DNA of 64,000 bases from an uncultured Spirochaetota bacterium (GTDB lineage Bacteria; Spirochaetota; Spirochaetia; JAFGXN01), in NCBI GenBank assembly GCA_944390005.1, contig CALXOJ010000003.1, forward strand, positions 175,329-239,328. Reading direction: 5' to 3'. Both the position numbers and the translations under genes were made by a program. Position 1 is the stretch's first letter. Every line of letters begins with the position of its first letter. This document shows, piece by piece, positions 588 to 54,328 of this stretch. Under the pieces are notes generated by a model. The model was not told the DNA's origin, ran no database searches, and was given only the letters and a program-made list of their open reading frames with translations.

Positions 588-772
588 GTTTGGGCGCGCG
601 CCCCTACGGGGCGCCGCGTCGACGGCGGGCACGGTCTGCCTTACGGCAGACTGCCTGCGGCACCCGCCGTGCCGCTCGCGCCTTCGCAATCCGTTGAGAT
701 CTTCGGTGAATCAAATTTCCGAAAAGAGAGAGTGCTCGTTCGTAGATTTTCGAAAAACGAGGCAGCGGCCTT

Positions 773-5092: not shown

Positions 5093-7051
5093 TTATTTTG
5101 TCTCCAAAGCGGCGGCGTTTTCTCCTGCCTGAGCGGAGGCGAGACGGTTTTCCGTTTCTTCCCATTCGTCGGTCAGTTTTGCAATTTCGTCTTCGGTTTG
5201 TCTGACGGCTTCAGCGGCGGCTGCCGACTTTTGAGGATCGCTGTAGCACTCTTCACGGCTCCATTCGGCGTGCAGCTGCCTCAAACGCTCTTCAGCTGTT
5301 TCGATTGCCGACAGCAGCCTCTGCGACTCCTTTTGCAAGCGGTTGATCAGGTTGCGCGTCTCTTTTTGCCGTTTGTGATCGTTGTTGGCGGTCGTTTTTT
5401 CGATAGTGTGTTCGGGGGCTGCCGTACTTCGAGTTTCTGTTTGTGCGTCGGTTTGGGATTTTTTCCATAGAAAATAATCATAATCTCCGCCGTAAAAGCG
5501 GGCTCCGTTTTCCGTCAGATCGAGAACAGAATCGGCTAAATCTCGGATGAAAGCGCGGTCATGTGAAACAAAAATCACCGTTCCCGTATAGTTTTTTAAT
5601 GCCTCCAAAAGCACATCCTTTGAATGAAGATCGAGATGGTTTGTCGGTTCGTCGAGAATGAGAAGGTTGGACGGCTGCATCATCAGCTTCAGAAGGGTCA
5701 GACGATTTTTTTCGCCGCCGCTTAAAACGGAAATCGGTTTTTCGATGTCTCTATCGGAGAAGAGAAAGGCCCCAAGGAGATTGTTGACTTTCGGACGCAG
5801 TTCGGCCGGTGCGGCAGCGTCGGCTTCTTCTTTAACCGTCATTGAAGCGTGCAGATCGTGTTCGTAATCCTGCGCAAAATAGCCGATGCGGACGCCGCTT
5901 CCGAGTTTGACAGTGCCGGAGGTCGGAGTGTCCCGTCCGGATAAAATCCGCAGAAGTGTGGATTTTCCCGCTCCGTTGACACCTGTTACGGCAGTTTTTT
6001 GCCCCGCCCGGAAGGTCAGAGACAATTCGCGCAGGACTTCATGTGTTCCGTAGCTTTTTTTGAGATCTGTCAGCGTTAACGCATCTTTGCCGCAGCGGGG
6101 CGCCGGCGGAAAACGGAAATGAATTTTTTTGAGGTTTTCCGGAATTTCGATCGGCGTCATCTTTTCCAGCATCCGTTCGCGGCTTTTGACGGAGGCAGCC
6201 TTTGTCGCTTTTGCCCGAAACCGTTCAATGTACTGTTTGCTGCGTTCGATTTCTTCCTGTTGGATTTTCGCCTGTCGGATCAGTAAATCGATTTCTTCTT
6301 TACGCTGCTTTTCATATGCCGAATAATTGCCCTTGTACCGTTTCAGCCGGCCGTTAAAAAGTTCGTAAGTTTCGCCGACAGTTTCATCTAAAAACCATCG
6401 GTCATGTGAAATGAGTAAAATGCCGCCGTCGTATTTTTCAAGAAAACGGGCAAGCCATTCGCGGCTTTCAATGTCGAGATAGTTTGTCGGTTCATCCAAG
6501 AGGAGAATTTGCGGCTGCATCAGCAGGATACGCGCCAATGCAATACGCATCTGCCAGCCGCCGGAAAAGGAGGAGGAAGATTTTTCGAGATCAGAAGTTT
6601 TGAATCCGAGCCCTTTCAGTACTCGGTCGATGCGATCGCGTCGGTGGTGGTAGCCGCAGGCAAGAAGAATCTCTTCGATTTCGTGAATGCGGTGAGCTTT
6701 TTCTTCCCAGCCGGCGTCGTGTCCGTTCATCTGTGCTGCCAAACGCGTTTTTTCATCTTCAAGCAGTCGGAAGCGGTCAAAGGCATCTTCGACCTCTTCC
6801 GGAGGCGTTTTGCTGCCGAAAGAGATACCGGTTTGCGGCAGATATGCGGCGAGCGTGCCTTCGGATTTCGAAACGGTTCCGGTATCCGGCTGAATTTCTC
6901 CGACAAGGATTTTCATAAGCGTCGATTTGCCGCAGCCGTTAACGCCGGCTAAAGCGGCGCGCGTTTTGCCGTCAATTTGAAGAGAGACGTTATTGAGCAA
7001 ATCCCGGTCACCGTAGGCAAGACAGATGTGCGAAGCTTGCAGAAGAGCCAC
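5093..7051 (-). CDS. ABC-F family ATPase (two tandem ABC domains, C-terminal coiled-coil; Uup/EttA-like)
   Basis: Two Walker A motifs (GVNGCGKST; GVNGAGKST) and two ABC signatures (LSGGWQMR; LSGGEKNR). There are no TM segments. The acidic/basic coiled-coil tail is typical of Uup-type ABC-F proteins. Confidence 0.85.
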   Translation of the reverse strand: MALLQASHICLAYGDRDLLNNVSLQIDGKTRAALAGVNGCGKSTLMKILVGEIQPDTGTVSKSEGTLAAYLPQTGISFGSKTPPEEVEDAFDRFRLLEDEKTRLAAQMNGHDAGWEEKAHRIHEIEEILLACGYHHRRDRIDRVLKGLGFKTSDLEKSSSSFSGGWQMRIALARILLMQPQILLLDEPTNYLDIESREWLARFLEKYDGGILLISHDRWFLDETVGETYELFNGRLKRYKGNYSAYEKQRKEEIDLLIRQAKIQQEEIERSKQYIERFRAKATKAASVKSRERMLEKMTPIEIPENLKKIHFRFPPAPRCGKDALTLTDLKKSYGTHEVLRELSLTFRAGQKTAVTGVNGAGKSTLLRILSGRDTPTSGTVKLGSGVRIGYFAQDYEHDLHASMTVKEEADAAAPAELRPKVNNLLGAFLFSDRDIEKPISVLSGGEKNRLTLLKLMMQPSNLLILDEPTNHLDLHSKDVLLEALKNYTGTVIFVSHDRAFIRDLADSVLDLTENGARFYGGDYDYFLWKKSQTDAQTETRSTAAPEHTIEKTTANNDHKRQKETRNLINRLQKESQRLLSAIETAEERLRQLHAEWSREECYSDPQKSAAAAEAVRQTEDEIAKLTDEWEETENRLASAQAGENAAALETK

Positions 7052-7053
7052 AG

Positions 7054-8304
7054 TTACCTCGATAGGTAAAGTTTCAGCGGAGCGTTCGGTTGTCGGATAA
7101 CGGTGTTTTTTTCCACCAAATAATCGGGAATCATTGTCAATTCAAGGTTATTTTCGTCAGCGTTATACAGTGCGTAAACGGTCTTTCCCTGTGAAAACCG
7201 AAAAACAAGTCCGCCGGTGTAAGAGTCGCTCAAATCCGGACTTATGAACAAGTTGAACGAAACGGTTCCTTCGGTAAAATCGGGACTTGGAATGTAATCG
7301 GGTATCAGAATGCGGTTGCGGGTCCAAACGAATTTTTTGTCTTCGGTAATCGTCAGCCGTCCCGAACTGATGCTCGAAAACGAGTTTCCGTAAGCGATTA
7401 AATTTTCGAACAGTTCGTTTTGCCGATTTTGTTCGGCTTCGATAATTTTCGTCAGATCGGGAATTGGTGAGAAAAACTGTCCGTAATCGTTTTTCAGCGA
7501 AGTGTTGATGATAAGAATTTCGTTGGAATTCGGAAGGTTGACTTGAATCGGCGTGTCGGTGAACGAAACGGTTCTGCGGTCGCCTTCGATTCCCGAATAC
7601 GAAAAAACGCCTGAATAAAGTTTTGAGCGGATGGTGAGCACTTTTTTTTGCGGATCGACTTTGAAAAAGTAGTTTTTGGCAAACAGTTCCAAATCATAAA
7701 TTTCGTTGGCAATGTATTCTTTGTACTCCGACGGATAAAAAACTGTCGAAGTCAGGCGGTCGGCAGCCGCCTGGTACGGGTCCCGCTTTTCCGCTTCGGA
7801 AGCTCGGAATAATTCGAGGTTATGACCGTAGGACCAACCGGCGGTTCCCGTTTCCGTTAAAATGCGGTACCAATAATTTTGCGTCGATCCGATAGTGTCC
7901 ATCTCGTCTGATCGTTCGATGATTTTGATTTCCTCACCTTCTTTCAGTGTGTACAAAACCGATCCGAACGCATCGGCTGTCGCTCTGACAGCGTGGCGGT
8001 CGCGTTTGGCCGTTGCAAATGTATCGATAAACGGCAGATAGGATTCGCGAAAATTCTCCGCATCTCGTTTGCGTTTTTCGAAATGAAGCTGCCACTTTTC
8101 GTATTCAATACGGTTCCCGTCGATTTGAACGATGTATTTGTTGCGAAGTTTTGACTCCTGCTTGATTTTTACAAGCAGTCCGTTGTTTTGAGGGATTTGA
8201 AAATCCCAAAGTACAACTCCGTACCCGATTCGTTCCGGTATGATCAGAAGGATGAAGCTGATGAGAACGCACGATACAAGCAATCCGATGACAATTTTTT
8301 TCAT
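7054..8304 (-). CDS. hypothetical membrane-anchored protein with SH3b-like segment
   Basis: N-terminal TM helix MKKIVIGLLVSCVLISFILLII. The region ...YWYRILTETGTAGWSYGHNLEL resembles a bacterial SH3 domain. The rest has no recognisable family. Stop/start junctions with neighbours suggest an operon. Confidence 0.5.
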   Translation of the reverse strand: MKKIVIGLLVSCVLISFILLIIPERIGYGVVLWDFQIPQNNGLLVKIKQESKLRNKYIVQIDGNRIEYEKWQLHFEKRKRDAENFRESYLPFIDTFATAKRDRHAVRATADAFGSVLYTLKEGEEIKIIERSDEMDTIGSTQNYWYRILTETGTAGWSYGHNLELFRASEAEKRDPYQAAADRLTSTVFYPSEYKEYIANEIYDLELFAKNYFFKVDPQKKVLTIRSKLYSGVFSYSGIEGDRRTVSFTDTPIQVNLPNSNEILIINTSLKNDYGQFFSPIPDLTKIIEAEQNRQNELFENLIAYGNSFSSISSGRLTITEDKKFVWTRNRILIPDYIPSPDFTEGTVSFNLFISPDLSDSYTGGLVFRFSQGKTVYALYNADENNLELTMIPDYLVEKNTVIRQPNAPLKLYLSR

Positions 8305-32611: not shown

Positions 32612-32685
32612 CAACTCAACTCAACTCAACTCAACTCAACTCAACTCAACTCAACTCAACTCAACTCAACTCAACTCAACTCAAC
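32612..32685. repeat. pentanucleotide microsatellite (CAACT)14 + CAAC in divergent intergenic region
   Basis: A perfect run of CAACT units spans 32612-32681, plus a partial unit. The listed ORF 32607-32828 (NSTQLNSTQL...) is just its translation. Confidence 0.95.
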
Positions 32686-33248: not shown

Positions 33249-33668
33249 TTTGGTTTTACCGACAGTGGTAATTCATACTCTCTTCCGCGCGCAGTTGATT
33301 CGGAGTTAGGCGGCTCTTCTGCGAATTCTTTAGAACGCGCCGTGCAGTAAGCCGCCGGGTTTGTTGCGTTCAGTCAATTTTTTACTGTTTAAAAGAGCTT
33401 ATTGCGGTTCTCGGGGTAGTTGCGTCCGAAATCCTTTGCCGGAAGCCGATCCTGCAAGGCGTGCGCCCCTTTTTCGGATCCGCCGCCTTCAACGCAGTCT
33501 CCTGTGCCTTTTGAACCGCCCACCGCCTCATTTGTTCTATTCTTTTGCTGCCCAAAAACGCATAAAAAAAAGAAAAAGTTTTTTCAAAAAAACCTCTTTT
33601 TTGACATTAATCATGATAGAGCGTATGTAAAAACTTCGCAGCAAAAGCCCCAAATCCGCGGAGGTGTT

Positions 33669-34451
33669 ATGAAAAACTACAGCGAACTGACCCTAACCGA
33701 CGACTACCTGTTCAGCCAAGTAATGAAAGACGAAAGCGTGTGCAAGCCGTTTCTGGAAATGCTTCTGGAAATCAAAATAGCCAAAATTGAGTATTTGCAG
33801 GAACAGAAAGAGTTGAACCTCTTCCCCGACTCCAAAGGCGTAAGGCTGGACGTCTACCTTGAAGGAGACGGAAAGGTGTACAACATCGAAATGCAGGCAG
33901 GACGCGATCAATACCTCATCTGCCGAATGCGCTACTACCGGGCGGCGATCGACATCGACATGATGATGAGAGGCAGCGGGTACCGGGAACTGAAACCCGT
34001 GTATATCATATTTCTCTGCCGATTTGACCCGATAGGGAAGGGATTGGCGAGGTACACGCTGAGGAAATACTGTGAGGAGACGGGAGAAAAAATCGATGAC
34101 GGACAGACGGAAATCGTGTATAATGTGAATGCGTATGAGAGAGCGGGGCGCGGGAAGGTACGGGAGCTTCTGAGGTATTTAGCGACCGGAGAGGCGCAGG
34201 AACCGGAGGTGAAGGAGTTTGCTAAGAAGATAGCCCGTTTTAAAGAGACGCAGCAGTGGAGAAAAGGAAACATGAAATACGAGTTAGATTTACAAGACGC
34301 CCGCATTGAAGGAAAGGAAGAGGGACGCAGTGAGACACTGCTGCTGATTATTGAGAATGGAGTGAAGCAAGGGTTAACGCCCGAGCAGACGGCGGCGCTG
34401 ACGGGGTTAACGGTTGACGAGGTGGAAGCACTGCGGAAGCGGATTCGGTAA
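33669..34451 (+). CDS. Rpn-family PD-(D/E)XK nuclease / 'putative transposase' (TIGR01784-like), copy 1
   Basis: The D...E.Q core is VRLDVYLEGDGKVYNIEMQ. The C-terminal low-complexity E/G repeat tail (EGKEEGRSE) and helix ...GLTPEQTAALTGLTVDEVEAL are typical of this family. The first 214 aa are identical to copy 2. Confidence 0.75.
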   Translation: MKNYSELTLTDDYLFSQVMKDESVCKPFLEMLLEIKIAKIEYLQEQKELNLFPDSKGVRLDVYLEGDGKVYNIEMQAGRDQYLICRMRYYRAAIDIDMMMRGSGYRELKPVYIIFLCRFDPIGKGLARYTLRKYCEETGEKIDDGQTEIVYNVNAYERAGRGKVRELLRYLATGEAQEPEVKEFAKKIARFKETQQWRKGNMKYELDLQDARIEGKEEGRSETLLLIIENGVKQGLTPEQTAALTGLTVDEVEALRKRIR

Positions 34452-34577
34452 AAACGATCGATTTTCAAATAAATCCGTTCTCGAAGCTCAAACCCGCCTT
34501 TACCCGCGCCCGGTTTTCCAAAGGCGTTTCGCTGCCCTAAACGGGAACGAAAGTTGCCTCAAAAGACACAAAACACC

Positions 34578-34860
34578 GCGTTAAAGACGACAGATTCTCA
34601 AACGCAACCCACCGCAGTCGAAGCTTAAAATATTGCGTTAAAATCCACTGATTCGCCAAAGAAACTCACAGCTATCGAAGTTTACCCACTACGTTAAAAT
34701 CCACCGATTCGCCAAAGAAACCCGCCGCAGCCGAAGCTCAAAATATTGCGTTAAAGGCCTCTGATTCGCCAAAGACATCAAACATTGCGAAGTCAAAAAA
34801 TTCCCTTTAAAGGCGGCAGATTCTCAAATAAAACCACAGCGGTATTAAATAAAGACGCAA
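34578..34860. repeat. tandem array of ~5 degenerate 56-57-bp repeats downstream of Rpn copy 1
   Basis: Units start at 34578, 34635, 34691, 34748 and 34804. The consensus is roughly GCGTTAAAATCCACCGATTCGCCAAAGAAACCCACCGCAGCCGAAGCTCAAAATATT. The same family lies at 39601-39815. Confidence 0.7.
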
Positions 34861-35810: not shown

Positions 35811-35839
35811 TTGACAAATAGAGGGGGGGGGGGACAATA
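35811..35839 (+). promoter_or_regulatory. putative promoter of the sulfatase gene with the G11 tract in the spacer
   Basis: TTGACA at 35811-35816. A 17-nt spacer (35817-35833) ends in the G11 run. A weak -10-like ACAATA lies at 35834-35839. A9-T-A9 AT-tracts sit upstream (35781-35799). Confidence 0.4.
35823..35833. repeat. homopolymeric G11 tract
   Basis: Eleven consecutive G at 35823-35833, the only long poly-G in the window. Confidence 0.95.
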
Positions 35840-35876
35840 ATAGTAAATAGAAAAAAATTTTAAAAGAGGTATAATT

Positions 35877-38252: not shown

Positions 38253-38277
38253 GGCGCCCCTTTTGGGGCGCTTTTTT
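38253..38277 (+). terminator. Rho-independent terminator of sulfatase gene
   Basis: GGCGCCCC-TTTT-GGGGCGC followed by T6. Confidence 0.65.
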
Positions 38278-38643
38278 GTATTTCGGGCGCGTGCGCGCCG
38301 CAAGCGGCGCGCACCGGGCTTTCCGCTGCAATTCGCAGCCTCCCGCGCCTTTACCGAGGCAAAGCTGCCGCTTTGCCCTGCGCCATCTCTCCGTCGGCAG
38401 CTCATTTCCGCTCCAATCCCTCGCGCCTTCGAAAGCGTGCGCCCCTTTTTCGAATCCGCCGCCTCCAACGCAGTATCCTGTGCCTTTTGAGTCTCATACA
38501 GCCTCATTTGTTCTATTCTTTTGCTGCCCAAAAACGCATAAAAAAAAGAAAAAGTTTTTCAAAAAAACCTCTTTTTTGGCATTAATCATGATAGAGCGTG
38601 TGTAAAAACTTCGCAGCAAAAGCCCCAAATCCGCGGAGGTGTT

Positions 38644-39474
38644 ATGAAAAACTACAGCGAACTGACCCTAACCGACGACTACCTGTTCAGCCAAGTAATG
38701 AAAGACGAAAGCGTGTGCAAGCCGTTTCTGGAAATGCTTCTGGAAATCAAAATAGCCAAAATTGAGTATTTGCAGGAACAGAAAGAGTTGAACCTCTTCC
38801 CCGACTCCAAAGGCGTAAGGCTGGACGTCTACCTTGAAGGAGACGGAAAGGTGTACAACATCGAAATGCAGGCAGGACGCGATCAATACCTCATCTGCCG
38901 AATGCGCTACTACCGGGCGGCGATCGACATCGACATGATGATGAGAGGCAGCGGGTACCGGGAACTGAAACCCGTGTATATCATATTTCTCTGCCGATTT
39001 GACCCGATAGGGAAGGGATTGGCGAGGTACACGCTGAGGAAATACTGTGAGGAGACGGGAGAAAAAATCGATGACGGACAGACGGAAATCGTGTATAATG
39101 TGAATGCGTATGAGAGAGCGGGGCGCGGGAAGGTACGGGAGCTTCTGAGGTATTTAGCGACCGGAGAGGCGCAGGAACCGGAGGTGAAGGAGTTTGCTAA
39201 GAAGATAGCCCGCTTTAAAGAGACGCAGCAGTGGAGGAAAGGAAACATGAAATACGAATTAGACTTACAAGACGCCCGTGCGGAAGGCATTGAAATCGGA
39301 CGAAGCGAAGGGCTGGAAGAAGGATTGGAGAAAGGCCATTCCGAGGGACGTTATGAAATGGCTGTCCTTATCACAGAAAATATGATGAAGCAAGGATTAA
39401 CGCCCGAACAGACGGCGGCGCTGACGGGGTTAACGGTTGACGAGGTGGAAGCACTGCGGAGGCGGATGCGGTAA
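38644..39474 (+). CDS. Rpn-family PD-(D/E)XK nuclease / 'putative transposase' (TIGR01784-like), copy 2
   Basis: Identical to copy 1 over the first 214 aa. It has a longer C-terminal E/G-repeat tract (AEGIEIGRSEGLEEGLEKGHSEGRYEMAVLITENMM), 16 aa more than copy 1. Confidence 0.75.
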   Translation: MKNYSELTLTDDYLFSQVMKDESVCKPFLEMLLEIKIAKIEYLQEQKELNLFPDSKGVRLDVYLEGDGKVYNIEMQAGRDQYLICRMRYYRAAIDIDMMMRGSGYRELKPVYIIFLCRFDPIGKGLARYTLRKYCEETGEKIDDGQTEIVYNVNAYERAGRGKVRELLRYLATGEAQEPEVKEFAKKIARFKETQQWRKGNMKYELDLQDARAEGIEIGRSEGLEEGLEKGHSEGRYEMAVLITENMMKQGLTPEQTAALTGLTVDEVEALRRRMR

Positions 39475-39600
39475 AAACGATCGATTTTCAAATAAATCCG
39501 CTCTCGAAGCTCAAACCCGCCTTTACCCGCACCTGATTTTCCGAAGGCGTTTCGTTACCCTAAACGGGAACGAAAGTTGCCTTAAAAGACCCAAAACACC

Positions 39601-39815
39601 GCGTTAAAAGCGACAGATTCTCAAATAAAGCCACAGTTGTCGAAGCTCAAAATATTGCGTTAAAATCCACCGATTCGCCAAAGAAAACCACAGCTGTCGA
39701 AGTTTAACCACTGCGTTAAAAGCGCCCGATTCTCCAAAGAGCCCCACAGCAGTCGAAGCTCAAAATACTGCGTTAAAATCCACCGATTCGCCAAAGAAAC
39801 CCACCGCAGCCGAAG
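39601..39815. repeat. tandem array of ~4 56-57-bp repeats downstream of Rpn copy 2
   Basis: Units start at 39601, 39657, 39713 and 39770. Same family as 34578-34860. Confidence 0.7.
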
Positions 39816-39952
39816 GCGCGAGCGGCACGGCGGGAGCCGCAAGGCTGCCTGCCGTCAGGCAGGCCGAGCCCGCCGTCGACGCGGTGCGCGCTCGGCGCGC
39901 ACGCGCCCAAAAGAAGAGTCTTGGGATCGAAAGGAGGCGAGCCGATTTTTTG

Positions 39953-53955: not shown

Positions 53956-54142
53956 AAATCATCGCCATTATATCCGAAACCGCGCTTTTAATCAAGCGGT
54001 TCAATGAAATTTTTATTTTTGGGCGTCCCGGCTTCGCCGTCGGCGCCCTCCGAGCTCGGTCTGCCCGCGCCTGCCGGCGGGCAGACGGCCTGCGGCCCTC
54101 TGCGGGCGCCTGACGCGCTTACGGCTGCGCTGCGCCCTCTTC

Positions 54143-54171
54143 TTGACAGAGATTCTTTCCTCACGTATAAT
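54143..54171 (+). promoter_or_regulatory. consensus sigma70 promoter (TTGACA-17-TATAAT) of FGE-like gene copy 1; identical copy at 55830-55858
   Basis: Perfect -35 and -10 hexamers with a 17-nt spacer. A ~150-nt leader follows, containing a UUCCCC-AA-GGGGAA hairpin and a U-run before the RBS GGAGG. Confidence 0.55.
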
Positions 54172-54328
54172 AAAATTATGAACGACGACAGAAGCAAGCA
54201 AGCAGTATCTTTATGTAACAAATCAGAAAAGTCCTCATTCGGTAACAAAGGGCGGTGTTTTCCCCAAGGGGAAATGCCGTCTTTTTTTATATTCCCACAA
54301 ATTTATTAAAAAGATGGAGGAAAGAACG

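Follow-up and report, generated by a model that had tools for sequence, protein, structure and literature searches.

Genes of the rpn family, which occur in several copies per genome, carry the annotation 'putative transposase', yet the reference study reported variable ends and could identify neither inverted repeats nor target-site duplications around rpn genes (PMC10400941). In that study, RpnL and RpnS form a gene-within-gene toxin-antitoxin pair that acts in phage defence and includes RpnA-E of E. coli and the plasmid-borne RpnP2 (Zhong et al., PNAS 2023, PMC10400941), and no autonomous transposase with the PD-(D/E)XK fold is known (PMC10400941). The window analysed here, a stretch of 64,000 nucleotides from an uncultured Spirochaetota bacterium, contains an rpn gene that lies between two exact inverted copies of a 15-mer, and the initial annotation described gene and repeats together as an autonomous DNA element of 1.6 kb. 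The question is therefore whether the 15-mers are the ends of a transposon. Overall, the gene is an ordinary member of the described RpnL/RpnS system, and the reading of its surroundings as transposon ends is not upheld. The coordinates of the features are listed in Table 1.

Table 1. Features of the rpn locus, of its paralogue, and of the related GC-rich repeats in the 64-kb window.
Feature	Position	Strand	Remarks
Paralogous Rpn cassette (copy A, locus A)	33460-34840	+	near-identical second copy in the window
Copy A, upstream region	33460-33668	+	
Copy A, ORF	33669-34451	+	260 aa
Copy A, array	34578-34835	+	
Sulfatase intrinsic terminator	38253-38279	+	8-bp stem with 7 GC pairs, then TTTTTGT
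GC_long subfamily 1, REP/BIME-like repeat	38285-38462	+	head is the left 15-mer; hairpin 1 at 38291-38314
Upstream region common to all Rpn copies including copy A	38436-38643	+	promoter-like element and GGAGG ribosome-binding site
rpnL, full-length Rpn-family PD-(D/E)XK nuclease gene	38644-39474	+	276 aa
Putative rpnS, in-frame internal ORF from Met202	39247-39474	+	75 aa; proposed antitoxin product
Hypervariable 4-aa repeat block, G-[LI]-[EA]-[EK] type	39280-39342	+	begins at residue 213, 11 residues past Met202
Conserved downstream region	39475-39591	+	hairpin at 39550-39575
Array of four 56-57-bp direct repeats	39592-39815	+	behaves as a variable-number tandem repeat
GC_short, second GC-rich hairpin repeat type	39811-39908	-	head is the right 15-mer, 39894-39908
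15-nt tail AAAAGAAGAGTCTTG	39909-39923	+	common to loci B and D beyond the right 15-mer
Solo GC_short-type element	592-686	+	head hairpin with another stem, GGCGCCCC-TAC-GGGGCGCC
GC-rich module X, third family of the same kind	54021-54138	+	head GGGCGTCCC
Solo GC_long subfamily 2	57801-57952	-	third exact 15-mer at 57938-57952

The assignment of the gene to the Rpn/TIGR01784 type was correct. Its product matches TIGR01784 with 122.3 bits against a cut-off of 52.1, covering profile positions 1-272 of 273, and PF12784 (PDDEXK_2) with 45.7 bits against a cut-off of 27.4. Residues D61, E74, and Q76, the latter two in an NIEMQ motif, do not vary among 10 homologues, the most distant of which is 38% identical, and by analogy with the PD-(D/E)XK fold they may be the catalytic residues. 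No match was obtained with the PADLOC 2023 models, and a sequence search of the PDB returned only a designed HTH repeat protein.

An internal ORF begins in frame at Met202, whose conservation is 90% or higher among homologues reaching down to 38% identity, and GGAGGAAAGGAAAC precedes its ATG as a ribosome-binding site of its own. The C-terminal stretch also occurs, together with 27 nt of its leader, as separate genes (L004:367-654, 95 aa, and L039:6958-7197, 79 aa); such stand-alone genes lie downstream of rpn in some strains only. Members of the cluster measure 260, 272, 276, 280, 284, or 288 aa, with an invariant N-terminus and indels in steps of 4 aa. Together, these features are hallmarks of the RpnL/RpnS toxin-antitoxin defence system (PMC10400941), in which the 4-aa repeats differ from strain to strain and start 8-20 residues past the internal methionine (11 residues here). 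The likeness includes the PD-(D/E)XK N-terminal domain with a conserved internal start for a small C-terminal protein, the strain-variable repeats, further small homologues that stand alone downstream of the gene in part of the strains, the presence of several copies in a genome, and region ends that vary without a target-site duplication. Unlike the E. coli Rpn proteins, the product matches TIGR01784/PDDEXK_2 and not the Transposase_31 branch, and its C-terminus has no match to DUF4351 (PF14261) even at E <= 10. A single-sequence model of RpnS consists of one long and two short helices (pLDDT 71), and a Foldseek comparison of this model with the PDB gave weak HTH-like matches only (E > 0.9), none of them significant.

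From family membership, the long ORF would encode RpnL, a toxic PD-(D/E)XK DNA endonuclease in an abortive type of anti-phage defence. Its final 75 codons would also be translated from Met202 to give RpnS, which would bind and block RpnL, and the number of 4-aa repeats in the helix shared by the two proteins may decide which RpnS matches which RpnL.

The regions on both sides of the gene differ in part from their first description. The promoter TTGACA-17-TATGTA that had been placed in the unit is not there; the quoted hexamers sit in the paralogous copy A (33601-33629), and the unit itself has a promoter-like TTGGCA-17-TGTGTA at 38576-38604. Neither of the two was called by a promoter scan. 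Downstream, the four 56-57-bp repeats are present as annotated, and the fixed architecture ascribed to them is not, as anything from 0 to about 9 copies can be present, depending on strain and locus and even at the same locus in different strains. Positions 39467-39515, that is, the final 8 nt of the gene with the stop codon and 41 nt beyond it, amount to a degenerate 'zeroth' repeat of the 57-bp unit; the array is probably a tandem amplification of the 3' end of the gene with a variable copy number. Iterons or binding sites, as had been suggested, would go with a fixed number and spacing of repeats; the reading as iterons was rejected because the copy number is unstable, and distant homologues also lack the array. 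A structured RNA was rejected as well, because the array shows no excess folding (z = -0.7).

The inverted 15-mers themselves are real. GGGCGCGTGCGCGCC is found exactly at 38285-38299 (+) and 39894-39908 (-), and the inverted match extends to 19/20 nt (38281-38300 and 39893-39912). Each copy lies within a GC hairpin, as the initial annotation had it: the left stem pairs 38291-38301 with 38304-38314, and the right hairpin is GTGCGCGC-TCG-GCGCGCAC. The left end does lie directly 3' of the sulfatase terminator (38253-38272 plus the T-run). The span of 38253-39915 given to the unit therefore begins too early, with a terminator that is outside the repeated unit; homology between Rpn loci begins only past it, at TTTC/GGGCGCG. 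Three exact copies of the 15-mer occur in the window against 0.51 expected, an expectation that allows up to 2 mismatches, and a chance origin of the pair was thereby ruled out. The 15-mer is nearly palindromic, so that the 'inverted' orientation is less informative than it looks.

Each of the two 15-mers forms the head of a GC-rich hairpin repeat of a different kind, here called GC_long (left) and GC_short (right); the two repeats lie in opposite orientation, and members of their family are found without Rpn as well. This follows from the position of the GC blocks outside the cassette shared by copies A and B, from the existence of solo copies, and from strains without Rpn, in which the same site next to TetR is occupied by a GC element too. 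Only the termini of GC_long and GC_short are alike. The core of GC_long ends in ...CTCGCGCCTTCG (38431), and a solo copy without Rpn (L044:980-1151) places the end of the repeat at about 38462; diverged solo copies are present in the window (57801-57952) and at about L001:9793-9925. The inner end of GC_short is also CTCGCGCCTTCG and is fused to the final unit of the array. The tail AAAAGAAGAGTCTTG beyond the right 15-mer is likewise found upstream of TetR in strains that have no Rpn there.

Seven GC elements were found in the 64-kb window, all of them intergenic and all beginning with a T-run followed by GGGCG. Five of the seven have no Rpn neighbour, and one of these five, which adjoins two tRNA genes with no Rpn gene close by, carries the third exact 15-mer (57938). 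Module X occurs a second time in identical form (55708-55825) and once truncated (57605-57670). The head hairpin stays in place even where its stem has another sequence, and the left head abuts a T-run at a sharply defined position in at least six contexts. At two loci, the modules form inverted pairs X(+)/subfamily 2(-) without a gene, and the spacers of these pairs are unrelated. GC_long and GC_short fold modestly better than shuffled sequences, with z about -2, which is weak for GC-rich sequence. Rfam, at gathering thresholds as well as at a permissive setting, reported tRNAs only and nothing on the GC blocks or the array, and a scan of JGI metagenomes, from which the species is absent, with a 23-mer of GC_long gave 0 matches. 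Seven matches to a head pattern in viral contigs were judged to be due to chance, as they lie in unrelated GC-rich contexts; no relative of Rpn was found in the viral contigs.

REP, BIME, and REPIN sequences of Proteobacteria are short GC-rich imperfect palindromes that are only intergenic and exist in many copies and sequence subfamilies. They have a conserved head followed by a hairpin with a variable stem, and they occur singly or as mosaics of alternating orientation, often after gene ends. The GC elements share with them the intergenic GC-rich palindromes, the subfamilies, the conserved head, the variable stem, and the mosaic clusters. They can accordingly be called REP/BIME-like, as they are present in many intergenic copies, singly or clustered in alternating orientation, and combine imperfect GC-rich palindromes with a constant head. 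Unlike REP and BIME, the elements are longer (about 100-180 bp) with several hairpins each, their host is not a proteobacterium, and the GC pair at the present locus brackets a 1.4-kb gene cassette.

On metagenome contigs of the same species, the number of Rpn loci recognized is at least five, two with both GC elements (B and D), two with the left head only (C and E), and one with neither (A), in a sample that is biased because the majority of loci were fetched via Rpn. All of these comparisons come from metagenome contigs; these tend to end at such repeats and could be chimeric there. Locus B, the unit at 38285-39908, lies between the sulfatase and TetR genes. Locus D shows the full layout again, with the same end sequences, between an M50 peptidase gene and gcpE; the order at both is GC block, Rpn gene, 57-bp array, and inverted GC block. 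Since the full layout with the same ends is found at two unrelated loci, at least one copying event has involved the 1.6-kb block as a whole. The conclusion that this is not a solitary domesticated nuclease gene is thus confirmed, by the dispersed multi-copy cassette as well as by the recurrence of the full layout at locus D. The second Rpn copy at 33460-34840, which has a 57-bp array of its own and lacks GC-rich flanks, had been missed.

Copy A is intact without GC_long, without GC_short, and without the 15-mer, and the N-terminal part of its coding sequence is 99-100% identical to that of copy B. From the alignment of A and B, the part common to all copies begins within the left GC block or after it and stops in the array. 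Between loci, the N-terminal coding DNA is 98-100% identical and the C-termini are mosaic; among Rpn contigs, one and the same left flank occurs with different right flanks. Every locus that has a junction of GC_long with the cassette shows the same one, and this holds also for the junction of the array with GC_short; separate insertions of the GC elements at the individual Rpn loci were therefore rejected. At four loci, GC_long subfamily 1 has been inherited jointly with the cassette. In a diverged lineage, locus C has GC_long beside an rpnS-only remnant (L075:3846-4070) that belongs to a different Rpn subfamily. In a genome collection from which the source species is absent, a scan with the Rpn protein found 23 loci with 28-60% identity over the best-matching segment (28-48% for matches of more than 100 residues), and none of these distant homologue loci has the GC elements or the 57-bp array.

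The ends of the unit do not behave as those of a defined element. The same inverted termini do not surround every intact copy, as both heads are present at B and D only; the left head of locus D is without the 15-mer, which recurs at the right end of D and at the left ends of B, C, and E. Bracketing of Rpn paralogs by heads on both sides is accordingly limited to two of the five loci, and the third 15-mer in the window has no Rpn gene near it. The segment shared by B and D overshoots the right 15-mer by 15 nt. No target-site duplication was found at the flanks of locus B (…GTATTTC / GGATCGA… or AAAAGAAG…) or of locus D (…GATCTTTC / TTTATTCGG…). Precise empty sites were sought via TetR, sulfatase, a 135-aa gene, GcpE, and DeoC, and none was found; alleles that lack 38285-39908, which the initial annotation had proposed to look for, were thus not seen in related contigs. 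At locus B, sulfatase contigs always run into Rpn or break there, and strains without Rpn also lack the sulfatase and retain a GC element there. Locus A likewise yielded no empty site. At locus D, a sister species has a different synteny, and homology with it resumes exactly where the 15-nt tail ends. Presence/absence polymorphism was not detected in about 20-30 contigs per locus. The literature on ISPlu15 offered nothing usable.

In the autonomous transposon of the initial annotation, the Rpn protein would recognise the 15-bp inverted repeats or their hairpins and move the 1.6-kb unit. The extended inverted match, the recurrence of the 15-mer at several locus ends, and a multi-copy gene family annotated as 'putative transposase' are in keeping with it, but an intact and nearly identical copy A without inverted repeats, the left head of locus D without the 15-mer, the third 15-mer with no Rpn gene near it, the lack of target-site duplications, the search for empty sites that found none, and the two GC blocks that have only termini in common argue against it. 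Distant homologues without this architecture, and a published family analysis that saw variable ends and neither inverted repeats nor target-site duplications (PMC10400941), point in the same direction. With both GC blocks at two of five loci, no target-site duplication, and a shared segment that runs 15 nt past the right 15-mer, the 15-mers are not supported as ends of an autonomous element, and this explanation is highly improbable. A different enzyme may instead have moved the block from GC_long to GC_short: machinery of the GC repeats, e.g. a RAYT-like enzyme encoded elsewhere, with Rpn as cargo and copies lacking one or both ends as decayed forms. This would account for the full block with the same ends at loci B and D, the sharp abutment of the left head on the T-run, the gene-less inverted pairs of modules, and the homology with the sister species that restarts at the end of the tail. 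It is nevertheless unlikely, given that target-site duplications are absent, that about 20-30 contigs per locus showed no presence/absence polymorphism, that the right end of the shared block is asymmetric (15 nt past the head), that the spacers between paired modules are unrelated, and that no candidate enzyme was identified.

Alternatively, GC_long may be a functional cis element of rpn, either an insulator or attenuator that shields the toxic gene from read-through or a structured RNA, with GC_short acting likewise on the other side. Its position between the terminators or T-runs upstream, which it directly follows, and the rpn promoter, with one fixed junction at four loci, would suit such a role, as would the retention of hairpin 1 despite changes in its stem, the modest excess of folding, and the presence of GC_long beside the rpnS remnant of another subfamily. 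However, copy A lacks GC_long and is otherwise intact, solo copies of GC_long exist, there is no Rfam match, and the folding excess is weak for GC-rich sequence, with too few independent sequences for covariation; a cis element is thus improbable. The evidence as a whole favours an RpnL/RpnS-type dispersed cassette that lies in REP-like repeats and was spread and homogenised by recombination, not by cutting at the 15-mers; this is probably the correct explanation, and recombination is the most likely means of spread and homogenisation. Gene conversion between copies would be a likely route by which the cassettes are kept uniform, and illegitimate joins of the microhomology type, possibly aided by the nuclease, would be the other. 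Counted against this explanation are the copying of the 1.6-kb block as one piece and the rpnS remnant of another subfamily beside GC_long, the latter hinting at a link tighter than neighbourhood. The negative results with PADLOC and DUF4351 and the uninformative fold search also count against it.

Compared with insertion sequences and MITEs, the block has identical inverted termini of 15-20 bp, multiple copies, and gene-less relatives. It differs from both in that there is no target-site duplication, the ends differ between copies, the two end blocks are different elements, and solo copies have one head and not two; it differs from insertion sequences also in that its protein has a fold without a known autonomous transposase (PMC10400941). 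Unlike the published RpnL/RpnS loci, most copies here are joined to an upstream GC-rich hairpin repeat and two also to an inverted one downstream, and the gene is followed by a variable-number 57-bp array that probably derives from its 3' end. It is because these hairpin repeats flank the copies that an inverted repeat of 15-20 bp can be identified here at all.

In this species, the published picture largely holds; what is added is that most copies are tied to GC-rich hairpin repeats and that two have both ends exactly in common. It is a doubtful but conceivable proposal that a REPIN-like mobile unit able to carry cargo has the GC hairpin repeats as its ends. Such a unit would extend from TTTC/GGGCGCG… to …CGCGCCC(AAAAGAAGAGTCTTG) with rpnL/rpnS inside; that it was copied between the sulfatase-TetR and M50-gcpE sites can be suggested only tentatively. 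If true, an Rpn defence cassette would for the first time have element ends of a definable, hairpin type, and it would provide a concrete substrate for testing the action of the Rpn nuclease, or of an enzyme in trans, on hairpins. The locus is also a natural system in which to ask whether repeat-mediated recombination spreads and homogenises Rpn defence cassettes, and it gives a population-level picture of 4-aa repeat variation and antitoxin-only derivatives beyond model organisms.

The transposon label has been given to related genes elsewhere. 'PDDEXK2 transposons' adjoin cif genes in Wolbachia and Rickettsiaceae (PMC12445526), where the name appears to be based on annotation and co-phylogeny; a term search of that paper found no occurrence of 'inverted repeat'. 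These elements occur in different hosts and in a different genomic context, and they share with the present genes the Pfam family, multiple copies, and rearrangement-prone, laterally transferred regions (PMC12445526).

The 15-bp inverted repeats on either side of the Rpn gene at locus B are exact: GGGCGCGTGCGCGCC is present at 38285-38299 (+) and at 39894-39908 (-), and the inverted match between the two ends extends to 19 of 20 nt. As the initial annotation described, each 15-mer is held in a GC hairpin, the left one follows directly on the sulfatase terminator, the ORF at 38644-39474 encodes an Rpn-family protein, and four direct repeats of 56-57 bp occupy 39592-39815. The protein matches PDDEXK_2 and TIGR01784, the latter over its whole length (122 bits). 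The promoter TTGACA-17-TATGTA that it assigned to this unit is absent from it; these hexamers are at 33601-33629 in the paralogous copy A, and the promoter-like sequence of locus B reads TTGGCA-17-TGTGTA (38576-38604). The window contains three exact copies of the 15-mer vs 0.51 matches expected with up to two mismatches allowed, which rules out a chance origin of the pair. The 15-mer is approximately its own reverse complement, and its third exact copy (57938-57952) adjoins tRNA genes, with no Rpn gene near.

Copy A has neither the left nor the right GC-rich block. When A and B are aligned, homology begins at GCGTGCGCCCCTTTTTCG (33460 / 38436), and both GC-rich blocks flanking copy B fall outside the common cassette. 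Identity is near 100% in the promoter region and stays so over the initial two-thirds of the ORF; it falls in the C-terminal portion, where there is a 48-nt indel, and dies away in the array.

Contigs of the same species were retrieved from many metagenome samples by exact-protein look-ups. The source species itself is absent from the searched genome collection and from the JGI metagenomes; the nearest named protein relatives are from MAGs of Spirochaetia (49% identity) and Treponemataceae (37%). There are at least five Rpn loci (A-E) in the species, with N-terminal coding DNA 98-100% identical between them, and samples combining A+B+E, B+D, and A+C suggest that they coexist in one genome. At locus C, no GC_short was present in the 190 nt remaining on the contig.

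Positions of repeats, genes, and Rpn loci (L-numbers are metagenome contigs; other positions refer to the window)
Feature	Position	Left flank	Content or relation	Right flank
GC_long (left block)	38285-38431		86% identical to reverse complement of 57801-57952	
GC_short (right block)	39811-39908			
Module X (third type) at 54021	54006-54152	tRNA gene		
Module X at 55708	55693-55839	FGE-sulfatase-like gene 54314-55666		
Module X at 57605, truncated	57590-57686	56001-57563, paralogue of FGE-sulfatase-like gene		
Copy A Rpn gene	33669-34451		260 aa, near-identical to gene under study	
Copy A 57-bp array	34578-34835			
Locus A	33460-34840	135-aa gene	Rpn, no GC elements	284-aa gene
Locus B		sulfatase	GC_long, Rpn, array, GC_short	TetR
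Locus C		thymidine phosphorylase	GC_long, Rpn, one repeat, poly-C tract	beyond contig end
Locus D		M50 peptidase	GC_long, Rpn, array, GC_short	gcpE
Locus E		Big_2 gene	GC_long, Rpn, 0 or ~8 repeats, no GC_short	221-aa gene or Fe-hydrogenase
Locus C site, diverged lineage	L075:3846-4620 (also L076-L078)		beside thymidine phosphorylase gene	
Stand-alone C-terminal gene	L004:338-654		gene 367-654, 95 aa	
Stand-alone C-terminal gene	L039:6929-7197		gene 6958-7197, 79 aa	

One left flank may be joined to differing right flanks, and the reverse is also seen (L036, L038, L042, L044 vs L045). Locus E, for instance, continues into either of two genes, and L042 joins an unidentified left flank to the right flank of locus D. 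All population data come from short-read metagenome contigs, which frequently end at the repeats and may be chimeric across them (e.g. L042, L036); such swaps reflect true rearrangement at the cassettes or else chimeric assembly.

GC_short and GC_long have only their two termini in common, the head GGGCGCGTGCGCGCC and the inner end CTCGCGCCTTCG, and in a relative of GC_short at 592-686 the stem of the head hairpin differs. The window contains seven intergenic GC islands, each opening with a T-run and then GGGCG; two flank Rpn copy B and five do not, a count that is unbiased for the window only, most other loci having been fetched through Rpn. The elements had no match in Rfam, and their folding exceeds that of shuffled controls only modestly (z about -2). 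They show REP/BIME-type features: a conserved head, a changing hairpin stem, subfamilies, and single or alternating-orientation use. A gene-less GC_long is found on L044 (980-1151), with the next 31 nt of 'cassette' sequence attached. The three copies of module X agree exactly over their first 68 nt, and the module also forms an inverted pair, module X (+) and GC_long subfamily 2 (-), at two unrelated loci (L001:9598-9925 and window 57596-57952); with unrelated spacers and no gene inside, the pair is a BIME-like mosaic. Seven viral contigs (L068-L074) contain the 15-mer plus GNNNGCG within unrelated GC-rich sequence, most likely by chance in high-GC phages.

The initial annotation took the 15-mers as the ends of an autonomous DNA element, a reading that the comparison of loci does not support. 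The full block with both GC elements does recur at locus D with the same junctions as at B, and in each context the join between the T-run and the left head is sharply defined. However, the ends are not alike across the five Rpn loci; the left head at D is GGGCGCGTGCCCCTGCGGGGCAC, hence no 15-mer, and no target-site duplication was found at B or D. B and D also have 15 further nt in common past the right head (AAAAGAAGAGTCTTG), a tail seen on no other GC element. In strains L001 and L002 this tail is found ahead of the TetR promoter as well; Rpn and sulfatase are both missing there, and a different GC element, GC_long subfamily 2, takes the same position. On the simplest reading of these sequences, the B region was copied to D together with a short piece of its flank.

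A precise empty site was sought for loci A, B, C, and D in the metagenome contigs, and none was found. In a diverged lineage (DeoC 92% identical), locus C retains GC_long, two partial copies of the upstream region, and only a stand-alone C-terminal gene (74 aa) that belongs to another Rpn subfamily; it resembles an old locus in gradual decay more than a recent insertion. This rpnS-like gene matches the C-terminus of a subfamily ~49% identical to the one studied and is a putative antitoxin-only remnant. Overall, the repeats and the multi-copy cassette are real, and the 15-bp inverted repeats are the heads of independent hairpin repeats and probably not the ends of an element. Copying of the full block between B and D would also fit a mobile cassette bracketed by REP elements, the main rival reading, which appears improbable.

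Locus B is a member of an already described system, RpnL/RpnS, in which an internal start gives a small protein that blocks the toxic nuclease, 4-aa repeats start 8-20 residues past the internal Met, extra small homologues lie downstream, copies are multiple per genome, ends are variable, and target duplications are absent (PMC10400941). Here too there are a conserved internal start, small downstream genes, multiple copies, and variable ends, and the 4-aa repeats begin 11 residues after Met202; a search for DUF4351 gave no hit. In homologues down to 38% identity, D61, E74, and Q76 do not vary and Met202 hardly does. The 90%-identity cluster has 99 members (listed lengths 260, 272, 276, 280, 284, and 288 aa); in the alignment the N-terminus is invariant through R212, after which G-[LI]-[EA]-[EK] units are gained or lost in four-residue steps and the C-termini are mosaic. 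Some strains have an extra gene between the main Rpn gene and the 57-bp array; it begins with the same leader and Met202 and has more repeats. This structural variant is seen at both B and D, which suggests exchange between loci. A PADLOC search gave no match, and a fold search with the three-helix model (moderate confidence) gave nothing informative.

The 57-bp array, previously regarded as fixed architecture, varies from 0 to about 9 copies at one locus in different strains and is missing from relatives at 28-48% identity, in which the only repeats seen were 24-nt ones inside the gene and a single 243-bp duplication at the C-terminus. It is not a constant component across the family. Since a degenerate unit at 39467-39515 comprises the last 8 nt of the ORF, with the stop codon, plus 41 nt beyond it, the array probably arose by tandem amplification of the 3' end of the gene. 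Folding revealed no excess structure in it.

By analogy with the described system, RpnL would be a toxic endonuclease restrained by RpnS, and the pair may serve phage defence. Rpn copies may swap sequence via gene conversion, and new arrangements could arise via illegitimate, microhomology-type joins, such as …GTTGCCTTA/AGAGACGCAG…, which would create the stand-alone small gene. The GC repeats would supply homology or insulation, not cleavage sites.

Two simple repeats in the region also vary among contigs. A perfect (CAACT)14 microsatellite between an EF-G-like gene (-) and the 135-aa gene (32612-32685) has 11 to 16 units. An 11-G tract (35823-35833, within 35811-35840) follows a TTGACA hexamer in promoter-like sequence 5' of the sulfatase gene and has 9-13 G; G12-G13 tracts also lie upstream of other genes (L044:1230, L045:1272, L038:4264), and such promoters are candidates for phase variation.
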